64,000 nucleotides of DNA from Enterobacteria phage GiZh: sequence record NC_054903.1; one strand, given 5' to 3'. This document shows, in pieces, positions 2,942 to 41,442 of this stretch. Position 1 is the stretch's first letter; each line of letters opens with the position of its first letter. The notes beneath the pieces are model-generated. The model was not told the origin of the DNA. It saw only the letters and a program-made list of their open reading frames with translations, and made no database searches. The position numbers and the translations under genes are program-made.

Positions 2942-4057
2942 ATGGAAAAATTTATGGCAGAGTTTGGACAAGGATATGTCCAAACGCCATTTTTATCGGA
3001 AAGCAATTCAGTAAGATATAAAATAAGCATAGCGGGTTCTTGCCCGCTTTCTACAGCAGGACCATATGTTAAATTTCAGGATAATCCTGTAGGAAGTCAA
3101 ACATTTAGCGCAGGTCTTCATTTAAGAGTTTTTGATCCTTCTACAGGAGCATTAGTTGATAGTAAGTCATATGCTTTTTCGACTTCAAATGATACTACAT
3201 CAGCTGCTTTTGTTAGTTTCATGAATTCTTTGACAAATAATAGAATTGTTGCTATATTAACTAGTGGAAAGGTTAATTTTCCTCCTGAAGTAGTATCTTG
3301 GTTAAGAACCGCAGGAACGTCTGCTTTTCCATCTGACTCTATATTGTCAAGATTCGACGTATCATATGCTGCTTTTTATACTTCTTCTAAAAGAGCTATC
3401 GCATTAGAGCATGTTAAATTAAGTAATAGAAAAAGCACAGATGATTATCAAACTATTTTAGATGTTGTATTTGACAGTTTAGAAGATGTCGGAGCTACCG
3501 GGTTTCCAAGAAGAACGTATGAAAGCGTTGAGCAATTCATGTCAGCGGTTGGTGGAACTAATAACGAAATTGCGCGTTTACCGACTTCATCCGCGATAAG
3601 TAAACTATCTGACTACAATTTAATTCCTGGTGATGTTCTTTATCTTAAAGCACAGCTATACGCCGATGCTGATTTACTTGCTCTTGGAACTACAAATATA
3701 TCTATCCGTTTTTATAATGCATCTAATGGATATATTTCCTCGACACAAGCTGAATTTACTGGGCAAGCTGGGTCATGGGAATTAAAGGAAGATTATGTAG
3801 TTGTTCCAGAAAACGCAGTAGGATTTACGATATACGCACAGAGAACTGCTCAAGCGGGACAAGGCGGTATGCGAAATTTAAGCTTTTCTGAAGTATCAAG
3901 AAATGGCGGCATTTCAAAACCTGCTGAATTTGGCGTCAATGGTATTCGTGTTAATTATATCTGTGAATCTGCTTCACCTCCGGATATAATGGTACTTCCT
4001 ACGCAAGCATCGTCTAAAACTGGTAAAGTGTTTGGGCAAGAATTTAGAGAAGTATAA
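2942..4057 (+). CDS. 35: long tail fibre hinge connector gp35
   Basis: 371 aa (T4 gp35 ~372 aa); position between 34 and 36. Confidence 0.85.
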   Translation: MEKFMAEFGQGYVQTPFLSESNSVRYKISIAGSCPLSTAGPYVKFQDNPVGSQTFSAGLHLRVFDPSTGALVDSKSYAFSTSNDTTSAAFVSFMNSLTNNRIVAILTSGKVNFPPEVVSWLRTAGTSAFPSDSILSRFDVSYAAFYTSSKRAIALEHVKLSNRKSTDDYQTILDVVFDSLEDVGATGFPRRTYESVEQFMSAVGGTNNEIARLPTSSAISKLSDYNLIPGDVLYLKAQLYADADLLALGTTNISIRFYNASNGYISSTQAEFTGQAGSWELKEDYVVVPENAVGFTIYAQRTAQAGQGGMRNLSFSEVSRNGGISKPAEFGVNGIRVNYICESASPPDIMVLPTQASSKTGKVFGQEFREV

Positions 4058-34324: not shown

Positions 34325-34525
34325 ATGGTACAAAAATTAATGGCACTTGTTAATGCCATCAAAGGTAATAAGAAACGTATAGCTTTTACTATTTCTGCTA
34401 TGGTAGGAATTTTACTCTGGAACTTTATTTTATCACCAATTGCAATTGCACATGGTGTTAATATTCCAGTAGTTACTCTTGATACATTTGTAGATTTAGC
34501 ATTTGCTTTAGTTGGGTTAATTTAA
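34325..34525 (+). CDS. small two-helix membrane protein (66 aa), the only + strand ORF in the early region
   Basis: perfect SD AAGGAGG 5 nt before ATG; hydrophobic; stop overlaps gene 61 stop on opposite strand. Confidence 0.5.
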   Translation: MVQKLMALVNAIKGNKKRIAFTISAMVGILLWNFILSPIAIAHGVNIPVVTLDTFVDLAFALVGLI

Positions 34526-35550
34526 ATCTTAGCATATTTAGATAACCGCATTTTAGCCATCAACCCCTGGGCAATATTATTTTTCATATATTCCATAATT
34601 TGTTCAGGGGTTGCACCTTCCTTTCTAATCATATCATTAACATCTTTTGATTTCCAGGGAGATTTATCCCAAAACATAACCCTTTCTCCTGCATCAACTA
34701 ATTTAGTCATTCGCTTAATAGTGTCAGGATGACGAGGTTCATTATCTAAGACCCACACACGCCTATCTTTAAATGGAACAACTTCTAGGTCTAATTGACC
34801 ACCCGTAATAGCTATACCATTTTCAATAAAAAGTGAATCTATAGGTCCTTCTAAAACATATACATCACCATCTTTAACTCGTTCGACTCCATATATTTTT
34901 GTTGCCTCAGGATAAGCTTTGATGGTGATATATTTTTGAGGAGCATCTTTCTTTAATGCACGTCCTTGAAAAGACTCAGCTTTTCCATTAGCATTATAAA
35001 TTGGAATAACAAGACGAGGCTCAGAAATTTCCTTTTTGTATGTTCCCGGTGCTATGCTATTAACTAATTTAGGCCATTCAGTTGTAAACCAAAGATATTT
35101 CCATTTATCCTTTGGAATACAACGAGCTTTTACATATTTTATAATTGCATGGTCTTCCGCCAGTTTATCTAATCGAACACATGACGGAAGAGATTTAATT
35201 ATTTTCTTCTCAGGTTGTTTAGGAAGTTCTTTAGGTTTTTCTACTGGACGACTTTTACCTTTTTCTTTTCTTATTTCAAAGATATACTCACGATATAAAT
35301 CAGGTTCAAACTCCTTTAAATATATTCCGATTGGTGCATGATAGTTACAGTTATAACAATGAATATTTCCTTCATTATTATCACCATAATACCATCCACG
35401 AGCTTTATTCTGGTCGGTTTTTGAATCTCCACAAACAGGACATCTAAACCGTAATTTAAAAGTTGAACTATTATTTACTTGTGTGAATTTAGGTAAATGA
35501 GCTAATGCACGGTATGCAAACTCATTATCAATCCAAGGTATTGATGACAT
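34522..35550 (-). CDS. 61: DNA primase gp61
   Basis: 342 aa, same as T4 gp61; N-terminal zinc ribbon CPVCGDSK...CYNC and TOPRIM region. Confidence 0.9.
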   Translation of the reverse strand: MSSIPWIDNEFAYRALAHLPKFTQVNNSSTFKLRFRCPVCGDSKTDQNKARGWYYGDNNEGNIHCYNCNYHAPIGIYLKEFEPDLYREYIFEIRKEKGKSRPVEKPKELPKQPEKKIIKSLPSCVRLDKLAEDHAIIKYVKARCIPKDKWKYLWFTTEWPKLVNSIAPGTYKKEISEPRLVIPIYNANGKAESFQGRALKKDAPQKYITIKAYPEATKIYGVERVKDGDVYVLEGPIDSLFIENGIAITGGQLDLEVVPFKDRRVWVLDNEPRHPDTIKRMTKLVDAGERVMFWDKSPWKSKDVNDMIRKEGATPEQIMEYMKNNIAQGLMAKMRLSKYAKI

Positions 35551-35713
35551 TTTTACTCTTCTTTTTCTTTAGATTCCTCTTTTTTTTAGGAATCTGTTCA
35601 GGACCTTTATTTACTACAGCGCCTGATGTTGTTCCAGTAGAGATATTTTCAGGATTACCACCTGAATCTCCAGCTACCATATCTTCTTTAATAAATTCTT
35701 TATATGTTTTCAT
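35528..35713 (-). CDS. hypothetical basic protein (61 aa)
   Basis: ORF overlapping gene 61 start by 23 nt. Confidence 0.4.
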   Translation of the reverse strand: MKTYKEFIKEDMVAGDSGGNPENISTGTTSGAVVNKGPEQIPKKKRNLKKKKSKNVINTLD

Positions 35714-35760
35714 ATTAACCTCTATTCATAAAAGCATTAAAAATTTGGTCATCAATAGAT
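35711..35760. repeat. ~50-bp direct repeat copy 1 (3' end of 118-aa gene and downstream)
   Basis: about 48/51 identical to 36069..36118. Confidence 0.8.
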
Positions 35761-36071
35761 GGAATAGCAACCTTTTCGGCATCATTTAGCAAATCATTAA
35801 TTTCATCAGATAGCATAACACATGTGCCTTTATTTCCTGTAATTGTTACTGCGCAATTACGAACGTTTTCTTTATCAAATTTTAGGTTAATATTTTCGTA
35901 GTGAAAATCCTTTAATGCCGAATATATCTTTAAAATGAAATTGTCTTTTACTACAATAAACCCAACCTCACTATTAAAACGCGGTTCATGGAAACTGTAA
36001 TAAACCTTTTCATCTATAAAATCGTATGAAATTTTTTCCATTTTTAAATATGAAAATTCAGAACTATACAT
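35715..36071 (-). CDS. hypothetical protein (118 aa), one copy of a repeated domain
   Basis: homologous to C-terminal half of the neighbouring 210-aa protein; ends DDQIFNAFMNRG. Confidence 0.5.
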   Translation of the reverse strand: MYSSEFSYLKMEKISYDFIDEKVYYSFHEPRFNSEVGFIVVKDNFILKIYSALKDFHYENINLKFDKENVRNCAVTITGNKGTCVMLSDEINDLLNDAEKVAIPSIDDQIFNAFMNRG

Positions 36072-36118
36072 ATTAACCTTTATTCATAAAAGCATTAAAA
36101 ATTTGATCGTCAATAGAA
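36069..36118. repeat. ~50-bp direct repeat copy 2
   Basis: matches 35711..35760. Confidence 0.8.
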
Positions 36119-36705
36119 ACTTTTACTTTAGGCTGTTCTTCAAACGGTAATTCATATCCACATATTACAATTTTGTGATCGATACCAAAATACACAGAAG
36201 CAATATTATTAATATTATTTTCAGTGAAATCTAAATCAACATCAATATCTTTTTGACTAACGCTCAAAGGATAATTAATACGAATAATTCGATTATCTTT
36301 AACAAAGATTCCACCGACATACTCTGTGCTGCGTTTAAAGTTTACACGTTTCCTAAATGAAAAATATTCAGGTTCTTTATGCGCTCGACTCATAGGGCTT
36401 AAAGTGTATTCCGAATATGAAATATCAAATCCTACACCTTCAATATGAGCCAAAGTGTCATGATTAAACCAATTATAATCGTATGCCAAATCCATTAAAT
36501 TGTAATATGTGAAAGGCACCGGATTAACATCATATGTTGTACCTTTAAAATCTGCCCAGGCAACGATTTCGTTATCTTTAACAATTACAAAAATTGTGCC
36601 AATAAGATATCCACGGTTATTTTCATCAGGTGTTATATTATAACATTGTGCATCAGGAAATTTACCGTATTTAAACGGTGGATTTTTGTGCATATAATAA
36701 ATCAT
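36073..36705 (-). CDS. hypothetical protein (210 aa) with internal domain duplication; positional equivalent of T4 61.2
   Basis: two (F/I)VKDN-containing repeats; ends DDQIFNAFMNKG. Confidence 0.55.
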   Translation of the reverse strand: MIYYMHKNPPFKYGKFPDAQCYNITPDENNRGYLIGTIFVIVKDNEIVAWADFKGTTYDVNPVPFTYYNLMDLAYDYNWFNHDTLAHIEGVGFDISYSEYTLSPMSRAHKEPEYFSFRKRVNFKRSTEYVGGIFVKDNRIIRINYPLSVSQKDIDVDLDFTENNINNIASVYFGIDHKIVICGYELPFEEQPKVKVSIDDQIFNAFMNKG

Positions 36706-36706
36706 A

Positions 36707-37000
36707 TTATTCGCCTGTGATTTCGGTTACGATATTTTTGTTATTAAAGTTTTTATCGCAATACAGAACATAATTATACTGCATTACACCACCAGACTTA
36801 AGCTGTTTTTGTACTTCAGCTTTCATTTCAGGACGATCGCGCTCAACGATATTCATAATATCCGCTTCAATTTGAGTTTCAACTTCAGTCTGATCTGCAG
36901 TCATAGACCATTCACACAAATCTTTATCATAGCCTGCCATAGCAGGCTGAGCAGCACAAGAAGCCAAAGTAAAAATTGTAGCAAAAATAAATTTTTTCAT
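36707..37000 (-). CDS. sp: Spackle (Sp), periplasmic superinfection-exclusion / lysozyme-inhibitor protein
   Basis: 97 aa with signal peptide; same length and position as T4 sp. Confidence 0.8.
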   Translation of the reverse strand: MKKFIFATIFTLASCAAQPAMAGYDKDLCEWSMTADQTEVETQIEADIMNIVERDRPEMKAEVQKQLKSGGVMQYNYVLYCDKNFNNKNIVTEITGE

Positions 37001-37060
37001 GATAATCTCCTCAGTAGTTTATGTTTATATAGTATCTCAATTTCCAACAAAAGTAAACAG

Positions 37061-37318
37061 CTATTTTAAAACTTCTGCGTAATCACATGTTACAAACTGT
37101 TTCTCTAGCTTAACGATTTTACGAAAATGCCTTTTACACTGACGAATCTGCCTCTTCGTAGGACGTACAACAAACTTAATAAATTCCACTCGACCAAATG
37201 GAGGACTTTCTTCTGCTGGAATATCTAACACCAATTCCCATGTATCCGCAATAAGCGCTTTGAATTGCGTATTTTTCCTGACGTTATACGGAGTAGGTTT
37301 AAATAAAACAATATGCAT
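37061..37318 (-). CDS. hypothetical basic protein (85 aa), positional equivalent of T4 61.4
   Basis: immediately upstream of dmd. Confidence 0.5.
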   Translation of the reverse strand: MHIVLFKPTPYNVRKNTQFKALIADTWELVLDIPAEESPPFGRVEFIKFVVRPTKRQIRQCKRHFRKIVKLEKQFVTCDYAEVLK

Positions 37319-37319
37319 A

Positions 37320-37502
37320 TTATCCTCGGCAATCTACTTCACATACTTTCTTGTCATCAATGAAAGCTTTAACTAATGCTTTATTAACTTCAGCATATTG
37401 AGTAGTAGCCCATTGAACGTCATCTTTCATCATTGTGATTTCTTTAGTAAACATGCTTTCATTCTTAAACCACCCCATAAAAACTACCTTTACCAATTCC
37501 AT
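37320..37502 (-). CDS. dmd: Dmd, inhibitor of host RnlA/LsoA toxins
   Basis: 60 aa; sequence recognised. Confidence 0.85.
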   Translation of the reverse strand: MELVKVVFMGWFKNESMFTKEITMMKDDVQWATTQYAEVNKALVKAFIDDKKVCEVDCRG

Positions 37503-37560
37503 AACAATCTCCTCATTTAACCAACAAGACTACTATACCATAGTCTTGTCAGCTTGTAAA

Positions 37561-38988
37561 CTAAAATTTTAATTCATTTGCCAAAGCATCTAACTGAGCT
37601 CGAGCGGATTCGTTTCTTTGATAGCGATTCTGTTCAGCCTGAATCTGCTGTGAACCTGCTACTTCGTTCACTTCAGTTGGAGTAGAATCTTGTTCAATTT
37701 CTACCCATTTTTGATTTCCTTTTTGAACACCCATCAAAAACTTATTCCACTTATTCTTATCACCATATCGTGATTTGATTTGCTTAATAAGTTGTTGTTC
37801 AGCAGCTGCCAACTCCTCGGTTTCAATGACCGCAAGCATAAAATCGGCTGTCGCTGGAAGACCAGCAGATTCTGCGATATCACTCATGTTAACATCAGAA
37901 GAATCCCAAGCTTGTTTACCAACCTGTGCTGCAGTCCAAAGAACAGTTTCGGTTTCAACAGCAAGAGCACGCAATTCCTCTGCAATAGCTTTAACAGTTG
38001 TGTAACTATTTTCTGAATAAACTCTAATGCGGCAAGATTTACAAATACCTAGATAGTCGACAATAATGATTGTTGGAACAAAATTCTTTTTGAGCTTCAA
38101 TTCATTCAAGAGAGACCTGAATGTGTTAGCATCTGCTCCACCAGTAGGGTACTGTTTAACGATTAAACGACCAAGAGTAGATTTCTCACGCCATTTTTCC
38201 ATTTTTCCTTTATACTCAGCGTAAGAAATATGTCCATCATCAATATCGTCAAGAGAAACATCGAGCATGTTAGCATCAATACGTTTAGCACAGACTTCTT
38301 CTGCCATTTCCATGGAAATGTAAAGAACATTATGTCCGAGCTGTAAATAATCTGCTGCCAATGAACACAATCCTAATGACTTACCAACGTTAACGCCAGC
38401 CATTAAAACGTTCAGCGTTCCAGTTTCAGCTCCGCCTTTCGTAATTTTGTTTAGAATTCTGAGTTTAAATGGAACCTTACGAGCTTTATTCATATAAGAT
38501 AGCCAACGTGCTTCGTAGTCATCCATCCAATCATGACCAACGTAGCTATCAAATGAAATTGATAATGCTTGACGCATGATGTCAGGAATAGCACCAACAT
38601 CCGGCATTTTCTTATTTCGTTTTTCCGGAGGAAGCTCAGCATTAGTTTGAATTTCGATTATTTTAGACGTAGCATTAAACATCGCCCTTTGCTGAACATA
38701 TTTTTCTGTTTCTTTTACTAACCAGCTGTGGTCTTCTGGAGAATCGGCTAGTTTTGAAATAAGTGTTTTTACACCAGAATATTCCGTTTCAGTAAATGAA
38801 CTATTTTCTAATGCAACATTTAACGCATTAATAGATGGAACGCTATGATACTCATTAACATGAGATTTAATTAATTTGAATGTATTTTTAGCTGGACCAC
38901 TTTCAAAATATTCTGAATCCATATATGGCCAAACTTTTGAAAAATAAGCTTGATCAAATATGAGATGAGAAAGAATAATTTCTACCAC
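37561..38988 (-). CDS. 41: replicative DNA helicase gp41 (DnaB-like)
   Basis: 475 aa, same as T4 gp41; Walker A GVNVGKS. Confidence 0.9.
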   Translation of the reverse strand: MVEIILSHLIFDQAYFSKVWPYMDSEYFESGPAKNTFKLIKSHVNEYHSVPSINALNVALENSSFTETEYSGVKTLISKLADSPEDHSWLVKETEKYVQQRAMFNATSKIIEIQTNAELPPEKRNKKMPDVGAIPDIMRQALSISFDSYVGHDWMDDYEARWLSYMNKARKVPFKLRILNKITKGGAETGTLNVLMAGVNVGKSLGLCSLAADYLQLGHNVLYISMEMAEEVCAKRIDANMLDVSLDDIDDGHISYAEYKGKMEKWREKSTLGRLIVKQYPTGGADANTFRSLLNELKLKKNFVPTIIIVDYLGICKSCRIRVYSENSYTTVKAIAEELRALAVETETVLWTAAQVGKQAWDSSDVNMSDIAESAGLPATADFMLAVIETEELAAAEQQLIKQIKSRYGDKNKWNKFLMGVQKGNQKWVEIEQDSTPTEVNEVAGSQQIQAEQNRYQRNESARAQLDALANELKF

Positions 38989-40593: not shown

Positions 40594-41442
40594 TTAATCA
40601 ACTGCTATTGGATGAATAGCATTAAACTTATGAAATGCTTCTGATTTTTCTTTACGCGAAACACACATGCGAAGAACCTTTAGTGGTTCATCTTCTTCAC
40701 CCAACGATTTTCGTTTTTCAATATTAGAAGTTTTCCAACGAGCTTGCTCTGGAAACTCTCTATTGATTTGCTCAAGCGCTCTATTATGTTTAGAATTACT
40801 GCGAATTGAACTGCACCCGCCAGGAGCTTGTGCTTTTCCAGATACAACCAGATATTTGAACAAGGCCAAATGCGGATAACCTTGATTAATTAAATTGAGA
40901 AATGCATACATATCTTCGCACAAATCAATTTTTCCATACCCAATTTGTTCTGTCGTAAGTTTTCCAAGGTCATACCATGTATTCGTGAATCCATATGAAT
41001 TTTCACGATAATTACCCCAAGATGAAGTAATTTTAAAAATAGGTAGACGAGCATGGCCATGATAATACCCACAATCCATGGCATCCTCAACATATTGAAT
41101 CAATTCATAGAACTGTTCACGAGTCAATTGATTGACTTTATCCACACAACGACGATCATCTCTTTTTCGCATTGAACTCATACGAATAGTAGTATCATCG
41201 TCAATCATCCAGATTCGTTGACCTGCATACATATCAGTAATTGCTTTACGAGTGCCGGCAATTCCGTTTACATCATCAGGAATAGTTACAATTTTAGCTC
41301 TAGACCCGTAAGCGTCATAATAAGCTTTTTCTTCGTGTTCACGCACTACAATATGGGGTTCATAATCAGTCGGAAACATATCAAGGGCAGAAACTGCCCC
41401 TACACGTTGATAGCTCGGAATTACGAATTGAATCATTTCCAC
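40594..41442 (-). CDS. putative DNA-hydroxymethylcytosine glycosyltransferase, GT-A type (not T4 beta-gt)
   Basis: 282 aa at the locus where T4 has beta-gt (351 aa); DDD (DxD-like) motif in IWMIDDDTTI; no resemblance to T4 beta-gt as I recall it. Confidence 0.4.
   Translation of the reverse strand: MEMIQFVIPSYQRVGAVSALDMFPTDYEPHIVVREHEEKAYYDAYGSRAKIVTIPDDVNGIAGTRKAITDMYAGQRIWMIDDDTTIRMSSMRKRDDRRCVDKVNQLTREQFYELIQYVEDAMDCGYYHGHARLPIFKITSSWGNYRENSYGFTNTWYDLGKLTTEQIGYGKIDLCEDMYAFLNLINQGYPHLALFKYLVVSGKAQAPGGCSSIRSNSKHNRALEQINREFPEQARWKTSNIEKRKSLGEEDEPLKVLRMCVSRKEKSEAFHKFNAIHPIAVD

Follow-up and report, generated by a model that had tools for sequence, protein, structure and literature searches.

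The segment at positions 36707-37502 of the DNA analyzed here, a 64,000-nucleotide stretch of Enterobacteria phage GiZh (NC_054903.1; hereafter the window), was found to carry the T4-type genes dmd, tifA and sp. It forms part of a published anti-TA (toxin-antitoxin) island and in all likelihood works as in T4, the activities of its products being transferred from experiments with T4 and RB69. Gene identity, orthology, functional residues, conserved promoters and ribosome-binding sites, and synteny were established directly on the window. Right after infection, the early promoter upstream of dmd would give rise to a bicistronic dmd-tifA transcript. Dmd would bind the RNase toxins RnlA and LsoA and thereby replace their labile antitoxins. 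TifA would bind RNA by its Pro-Thr-capped basic C-terminal helix and, by this helix together with the loop at residue 41, the endoribonuclease ToxN, which would be trapped in a large RNA-protein complex so that phage transcripts escape cleavage once the ToxI RNA antitoxin has decayed. Spackle, expressed from a promoter of its own, would reach the periplasm and block gp5, the tail lysozyme, of T-even phages that superinfect the cell, and AdfA, encoded downstream, would bind and neutralize DarT ADP-ribosyltransferase toxins.

The window was recognizable as part of the genome of a T4-like phage (Tequatrovirus). A stretch of 2.1 kb around the locus matched 663 phage records and shared 98.9% identity with Shigella phage SHBML-50-1; over the surrounding 16 kb, the identity to this Shigella phage was 97.9%. 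All genes of the region lie on the minus strand, and the three ORFs of the segment had exactly the boundaries assigned to them in a first-pass annotation. The gene order of T4 (NC_000866), 41-dmd-61.4-sp-61.2-61.1-61, is that of the window except for an additional 118-aa ORF in the latter. By homology and position, the locus is the ortholog of the T4 dmd-61.4-sp segment, placed between the replication genes 41 and 61 (Table 1). None of the six proteins of the region was covered by an NCBIfam model, and a scan of the region for intrinsic terminators found none. ORFs on the plus strand (e.g., an 86-aa frame at 36809-37069) were rejected as chance frames, being antisense to well-supported genes and devoid of family support.

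Table 1 Features of the region between genes 41 and 61, in window coordinates (functions are predicted by orthology where so indicated)
Feature	Position	Strand	Description
gene 41 helicase	37561-38988	-	ORF
early promoter of dmd-tifA	37532-37560	-	TTTACA-17 nt-TATAGT, TG preceding the -10 hexamer
dmd (61.5)	37320-37502	-	60 aa; RnlA/LsoA RNase toxin inhibitor (antitoxin mimic), by orthology
tifA (61.4)	37061-37318	-	85 aa, basic; ToxN (type III toxin) inhibitor, RNA-binding, by orthology
tifA-sp intergenic region	37001-37060	-	promoter-like GTTTAC...TACTAT and sp ribosome-binding site GAGGAG
sp (61.3, Spackle)	36707-37000	-	97 aa; gp5 tail lysozyme inhibitor, by orthology
adfA (61.2)	36073-36705	-	210 aa; anti-DarT factor A family
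118-aa ORF	35715-36071	-	paralog of the AdfA C-terminal half (BLASTP, Pfam, PHROG 4122)
61.1 homolog	35528-35713	-	61 aa; PHROG 1823
gene 61 primase	34522-35550	-	ORF
49-nt direct repeat, copy 1	35711-35759	.	3' end of the 118-aa gene and junction
49-nt direct repeat, copy 2	36069-36117	.	3' end of adfA and junction

The genes dmd, tifA and adfA were found within 1.43 kb (36073-37502). As judged from their orthologs, half of the six small genes that separate 41 from 61 are counterparts of toxin-neutralizing genes, directed against type II RnlA/LsoA, type III ToxN and type IV DarT, respectively. The suggestion of the first-pass annotation that some 1.8 kb of this DNA form a hotspot of counter-defense functions was thus well founded, and the dmd-tifA-adfA region already bears the name 'anti-TA island' (Srikant et al. 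2022, PMC9391042). In Tequatrovirus, the dmd-tifA segment was contiguous in 520 phage records. The Mosigvirus members PTK and RB69 also showed adjacent dmd and tifA genes, with imm.1 and imm inserted between tifA and sp. In Dhakavirus VR5, dmd and tifA are neighbors and a second tifA-like gene is located near 61.1. In Gaprivervirus VR20, the place after dmd is taken by another ORF, of 113 aa, and a single tifA-like gene is present, near 61.1. Across these genera, the island thus keeps dmd and sp as anchors, while its cargo is shuffled.

A similar pattern could arise if the clustering had no functional meaning and the 41-61 gap were simply a 'hyperplastic' region of T-even phages that gathers and shuffles unrelated small, non-essential early genes. 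Several of the above observations are in line with such a scenario: the gene content of the gap differs between genera, the tifA-like gene of VR20 does not adjoin dmd, and the cluster includes, with Spackle, a phage-phage exclusion protein, as do RB69 and PTK with imm and imm.1, which also serve superinfection exclusion. The recurrent TAATATG gene junctions and short repeats would favor the shuffling of cassettes as well. We nevertheless consider a meaningless clustering unlikely. Three of six genes with orthologs demonstrated to act against toxins of three TA types are far above expectation for random T4 early genes, and dmd and tifA are co-transcribed in addition to being contiguous in so many records.

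The first-pass annotation had described Dmd and Spackle as recognizable, and both identifications could be corroborated. Dmd was identical to T4 Dmd (gp61.5) in 60/60 residues; its gene differs from that of T4 by one synonymous and no non-synonymous codon change, so that a single nucleotide exchange without any detectable protein difference separates the two. The Pfam family PF17587 was matched with 156.9 bits (cut-off 27), and the sequence corresponded to that of PDB 5hy3 chain B, 'Antitoxin Dmd' (E 1.8e-37). T4 Dmd is cited as an inhibitor of the RnlA/LsoA toxins in PMC9391042. The same inhibition is predicted for the Dmd of the window, as follows from the identical sequence.

The signals that would govern expression of the segment agreed closely with those of T4. 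Directly after gene 41, the TTTACA-17-TATAGT element with its upstream TG represented the top match to the sigma-70 consensus in the region (10/12). The 41-dmd spacer differs from that of T4 by one base, outside the hexamers; the promoter hexamers and ribosome-binding sites are the same as in T4. In T4, dmd and 61.4 are expressed from an early promoter that precedes dmd (PMC9391042), and the annotation of phage Lutter shows a promoter at the equivalent position. The dmd gene is preceded by the Shine-Dalgarno sequence GAGGAG, 6 nt upstream of its ATG. At the dmd-tifA junction, stop and start codons are joined as TAATATG with tifA starting one base past the dmd stop, and tifA has the Shine-Dalgarno sequence GAGGA; this arrangement suggests translational coupling of the two genes. 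The 60-nt spacer between tifA and sp was identical to that of T4 throughout. Its GTTTAC...TACTAT element remained below the threshold of our sigma-70 scan. A promoter downstream of tifA is mentioned for T4 (PMC9391042), and the Lutter annotation places promoters within this spacer; from these two sources we infer that sp has a promoter there.

Spackle was identical to T4 Sp (gp61.3) in 91/97 positions (94%), with four of the six substitutions falling within the last eight residues, and matched Pfam PF25676 (T4_Spackle) with 152.3 bits (cut-off 27). Matches to the PDB entries 6x6o/6xc0/6xc1 and 7cn6 were obtained as well, the latter aligning from residue 23, i.e., from the start of the mature chain. 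T4 Spackle possesses an export signal, a mature protein of 75 aa and a Cys29-Cys81 disulfide (PMC7677548). Apart from the six substitutions, the window protein shares these traits, as it keeps the signal sequence MKKFIFATIFTLASCAAQPAMA at its N-terminus as well as the cysteine pair Cys29/Cys81. The T4 protein acts in the periplasm, where it binds and inhibits gp5, the tail lysozyme with which other phages would superinfect, and in this way mediates superinfection exclusion (PMC7677548). By analogy, Spackle is to be regarded as a phage-phage exclusion protein and not as a counter-defense factor against the host. The initial description of sp, the 61.4-like gene and dmd as an anti-defense islet hence holds for dmd and tifA and has to be given up for sp.

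The ORF of 85 aa between dmd and sp had been taken for the positional equivalent of T4 61.4. The comparison goes further: the protein is 82/85 (96%) identical to T4 gp61.4, with the substitutions A50V, Y64H and I83V, and can be assigned as the ortholog of TifA, the T4 gp61.4 product. Its basic character was confirmed (pI 9.88; 17 K+R versus 9 D+E), and 10 K/R residues are concentrated between residues 52 and 73. Residues 18-68 matched Pfam DUF7279 (PF23945) with 71.4 bits (cut-off 24.5; E 6e-20), and the protein was assigned to PHROG 2375 (E 3e-37). Its supposed conservation proved to be extensive: tblastn detected it in 662 phage records, so that the lack of conservation among relatives by which the first-pass annotation would have been refuted does not apply. 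The label of the ortholog in nearly all of these more than 600 records is 'hypothetical protein', and in some it is 'DNA polymerase'.

For the more remote relatives of TifA, a word-indexed homolog search returned only seven clusters, all near-identical and uninformative on distant relatives. Of the 11 representative clusters that an exhaustive phmmer search gave at E ≤ 1e-3, the best-scoring one, P0008 (2435 aa), was discarded as a spurious multi-repeat match to a eukaryote-like tandem-repeat protein. A family alignment combined divergent homologs retrieved by phmmer with those of Dhakavirus and Gaprivervirus. Here, W27, E28, V44, P53-Q57, R59, K62 and R66 were conserved down to about 31% identity, and P53-Q57, R59, K62 and R66 were invariant or nearly so across 14 TifA homologs. 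A PDB sequence search with TifA gave no match even at E ≤ 1. AlphaFold2, run on an eight-sequence alignment, yielded a low-confidence model (mean pLDDT 51.5, pTM 0.42) with strands at 20-22, 26-28 and 47-49 and a helix at 55-83. The three short strands and the helix of this tentative fold agree with the description in PMC10853763.

T4 61.4 was renamed tifA, for ToxN inhibitory factor A, in 2022 (Srikant et al., eLife, PMC9391042). T4 that had been evolved on toxIN+ E. coli was found to amplify the dmd-tifA locus, and tifA alone was sufficient to restore plaquing and to rescue ToxN toxicity; ToxN was inhibited by all of the TifA proteins from T2, T4, T6 and RB69 (PMC9391042). According to the mechanism described by Guegler et al. 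(NAR 2023, PMC10853763), TifA traps ToxN on RNA. The Pro-Thr-capped basic C-terminal helix binds the RNA, and TifA and RNA jointly bind ToxN, which is inactive within the resulting ribonucleoprotein of high molecular weight. The TifA mutants P53A T54A and K55A R56A R59A lost RNA binding, ToxN binding and rescue altogether (PMC10853763). Potency is tuned by loop residue 41, where F (as in T4) is weak and S or H are stronger, and the exchanges F41S/H improve inhibition (PMC10853763). We found F41, P53, T54, K55, R56 and R59 all kept in the TifA of the window. From the 96% identity we infer that this protein binds and neutralizes ToxN. Chromosomally expressed ToxN is overcome by the native single-copy tifA of T4; plasmid-borne toxIN restricts single-copy T4, and T4-type TifA overcomes it only after roughly tenfold gene amplification (PMC9391042). 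Given the weak F41 allele and this restriction of T4, the phage probably overcomes only low-level (chromosomal) ToxIN.

The need for amplification also raises the question of whether E. coli ToxN is the natural target. A protein of this family might instead be tuned to a different RNase toxin of type III (ToxN/TenpN/AbiEi-like) or serve mainly as a general early RNA-binding factor, with ToxN inhibition as a weak side activity. TifA homologs indeed vary in specificity, several of them inhibiting none of seven tested toxins (PMC10853763), and the authors of PMC9391042 suggest that each TifA is tuned to its cognate toxin. Moreover, TifA shows little sequence specificity in its binding to RNA, ssDNA and dsDNA (PMC10853763). 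However, the sufficiency of a single native tifA copy against chromosomally expressed ToxN speaks against this reading, and the TifA proteins of T2, T4, T6 and RB69 neutralize four ToxN homologs (PMC10853763). In addition, ToxN escape mutations map to the predicted TifA interface (PMC10853763). A different natural target of the window protein is therefore rated as quite improbable, and ToxN inhibition of the T4 type is retained as the preferred reading.

[quoted passage not shown] That the 85-aa ORF is a chance frame, or that it acts as an RNA in the manner of a ToxI-like decoy, which its small size, the RNA nature of the native ToxN antitoxin and the cleavage site in the T4 gene might suggest, can be practically dismissed, as these experiments refute the RNA reading for T4, the 13 synonymous versus 3 non-synonymous codon differences between the window and T4 show purifying selection on the protein product of a genuine gene, the protein motif persists to about 31% identity behind a Shine-Dalgarno sequence of its own, and an Rfam search at E ≤ 1 over 35400-37700 matched nothing.

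Downstream of sp, and joined to it by another TAATATG, the first-pass annotation had noted duplicated 61.2-like genes, and two related genes are indeed present. The 210-aa protein matched Pfam PF23813 (AdfA) over its full length (profile positions 1-211 of 211; 461.7 bits, cut-off 27), and the '61.2-like' gene is on this basis assigned to the AdfA family. The anti-DarT factor A, AdfA (gp61.2), goes back to LeRoux et al. 2022 (cited in PMC9391042 and PMC11257639). The window protein shares 73% identity with T4 AdfA and about 80% with RB69 AdfA. It carries Asn, however, at the site that corresponds to residue 164 of RB69 AdfA, where T4 has His and RB69 has Arg. His at this position leads to neutralization of DarT1 and Arg does not (PMC11257639). 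Since the window AdfA is without the His of the DarT1-neutralizing allele, its activity on DarT1 cannot be assumed. The Asn-164 allele of adfA was common to about 42 records at ≥99% identity (at least 99%).

Like its T4 counterpart, the window adfA follows sp and encodes a full-length family member; only in the window is it followed by a half-length paralog, 61.1 being placed directly after 61.2 in T4, where the 118-aa gene is absent. The 118-aa ORF showed 38% identity to residues 111-210 of the window AdfA (BLASTP, E 9e-12), matched the Pfam AdfA profile at positions 113-211 with 34 bits, above the cut-off, and was present in 331 phage records. The AdfA half matched by this ORF contains the DarT1 specificity residue. 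The N-terminal half of AdfA did not align with the C-terminal half, and the idea that AdfA arose when the domain present in the 118-aa ORF was duplicated in tandem was rejected for this reason. The two copies of the 49-nt direct repeat are 94% identical and spaced by 358 nt, i.e., by exactly one gene unit, and in both, the coding sequence for ...SIDDQIFNAFMN[K/R]G leads into TAATATG. Recombination between them would delete the paralog and yield the T4 arrangement. The 61.1 homolog was 74% identical to T4 gp61.1 (PHROG 1823, E 2e-32), and the last 23 nt of its gene are shared with the start of gene 61.

Only the 118-aa AdfA paralog, the Asn-164 allele of AdfA and gene 61.1 are parts of the island without a published function. 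Conceivably, though we would put it forward only tentatively, the half-length paralog and the Asn-bearing AdfA are specificity variants that neutralize DarT homologs or another toxin beyond the reach of T4-type AdfA, with the repeats forming a recombination cassette by which the paralog is gained, lost or amplified. The paralog, the allele and the 49-nt repeats, all located outside 36707-37502, are modest leads and not discoveries.

The genes, mechanisms and the island concept are already known and have been in print since 2012-2023. The main practical value of the analysis lies in annotation: renaming the orthologs TifA, and 61.2 AdfA, would correct the records of many phages. Such naming would also help to predict the plaquing of therapeutic T4-like phages on hosts with toxIN, rnlAB/lsoAB or darTG, and the alleles F41 (TifA) and N164 (AdfA) represent concrete, testable predictions of host range.

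In comparison with the characterized TifA proteins, that of the window is closest to the T4 form. The two have in common the length of 85 aa, the position after dmd, the TAATATG junction and the early promoter, as well as the F41 loop residue, the PT cap and the K55/R56/R59 basic helix; their three substitutions are conservative. TifA of RB69, a more potent ToxN inhibitor of 70 aa, belongs to the same family, has the basic helix PTKRQIR and likewise adjoins dmd. It is identical to the window protein in 39/70 positions, but lacks the 15-aa C-terminal extension and carries H41, which is associated with stronger inhibition (PMC10853763), instead of F41. On the level of the whole cluster, an analogy can be drawn to the anti-CRISPR and anti-RM islands of other phages (PMC9391042), which also consist of clustered, small, fast-evolving early genes, each directed against another immune protein of the host. 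Unlike in those islands, an Aca-like regulator was not evident in the window cluster. The targets differ as well, as the products of the window genes would act on toxins of toxin-antitoxin systems, and essential replication genes border the cluster on both sides.

The genes of the island are joined in a recurrent fashion, the stop-start motif TAATATG occurring at four junctions, namely dmd to tifA, sp to adfA, adfA to the 118-aa gene and the latter to 61.1. The arrangement suggests translational coupling as well as a common cassette boundary. At its 3′ end, 61.1 shares 23 nt with the beginning of gene 61 (primase), a pair that stands apart in T4; the 61.1 product is also longer than its T4 counterpart (61 aa versus 54 aa, 74% identity).

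One unit within this series is the 118-aa gene, a paralogue of the C-terminal half of AdfA that is absent from T4, but was found in 331 records of the phage database. More distant versions, annotated as 'similar to gp61.2', were observed in VR7 and VR20. A repeat search revealed that the 118-aa gene and adfA share a 49-nt direct repeat at their 3′ ends. Both copies encode ...SIDDQIFNAFMN[R/K]G followed by TAATATG, and their spacing of 358 nt corresponds to exactly one gene unit. A crossover between the two copies would remove the 118-aa gene, and the remaining AdfA would end in ...MNRG. T4 AdfA has this ...MNRG ending and T4 lacks the 118-aa gene, the same state as the predicted recombination product.

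Features of the island and their coordinates in the window
Feature	Coordinates	Details
TAATATG, dmd to tifA	37318-37320	
TAATATG, sp to adfA	36705-36707	
TAATATG, adfA to 118-aa gene	36071-36073	
TAATATG, 118-aa gene to 61.1	35713-35715	
61.1 homologue	35528-35713	61 aa
118-aa gene, paralogue of AdfA C-terminal half	35715-36071	38% identity, E 9e-12
49-nt direct repeat, copy in 118-aa gene	35711-35759	copies 94% identical; repeat search
49-nt direct repeat, copy in adfA	36069-36117	
19-nt direct repeat, copy at sp	36995-37013	84% identity; repeat search
19-nt direct repeat, copy at dmd	37497-37515	
9-bp inverted repeat	37524-37549	ACAAGACTA / TAGTCTTGT, 8-nt loop
AdfA	36073-36705	N167 (numbered on the long ORF) corresponds to residue 164 of RB69 AdfA

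A second direct repeat of 19 nt, with an exact core of 10 nt (AATCTCCTCA), has one copy over the ribosome-binding site and start of sp and the other over those of dmd, so that its copies bracket the dmd-tifA unit at a spacing of 502 nt. Segmental amplification of dmd-tifA is reported to be mediated by microhomology (PMC9391042), and the 19-nt repeat is of the kind described for this amplification. Upstream of dmd, a 9-bp inverted repeat, unchanged in T4 and Lutter, overlaps the dmd promoter at its –10 hexamer, with the gene 41 stop codon 12 nt before it. Since the inverted repeat is not followed by a T-run, it is unlike a terminator.

Across related genera, the island is rearranged. Dhakavirus VR5 carries two tifA-like genes (2501-2740 and 3534-3755 of locus L003), and Gaprivervirus VR20 possesses a tifA-like gene only near 61.1 (2489-2710 of locus L004) together with a different 113-aa gene after dmd. 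In RB69 (locus L007, 4012-4690) and PTK, imm and imm.1 are inserted between tifA and sp. The exhaustive TifA search also returned a 72-aa variant (P0007) that matches over residues 1-47 and diverges beyond, a pattern such as a frameshift would produce; the top match, a 2435-aa tandem-repeat protein (P0008), was dismissed as spurious. Several GenBank records (H54, H139 and H3) label the tifA orthologue 'DNA polymerase', almost all others 'hypothetical protein', and one record (H108) designates AdfA a 'superinfection immunity protein'. These labels represent annotation errors or gaps that could be corrected.

Beyond the island, uvsX is directly followed by a single 282-aa ORF (40594-41442) and then by a 246-aa ORF, while T4 harbors segA and beta-gt at the same place. 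In the nearest relatives, a beta-glucosyl-HMC-alpha-glucosyltransferase is annotated in this stretch; going by this annotation, the window phage probably employs T2/T6-type DNA glucosylation and lacks segA.

Finally, we compared the AdfA allele with those of T4 and RB69. AdfA neutralizes DarT1 with histidine at the position of RB69 residue 164, but not with arginine (PMC11257639). The window AdfA exhibits asparagine at the equivalent position, as opposed to histidine in T4 and arginine in RB69. Lutter AdfA shares the window residue, and the window allele is common to about 42 phage records at an identity of at least 99%. The window protein is nearer to RB69 AdfA (about 80%) than to T4 AdfA (73%).
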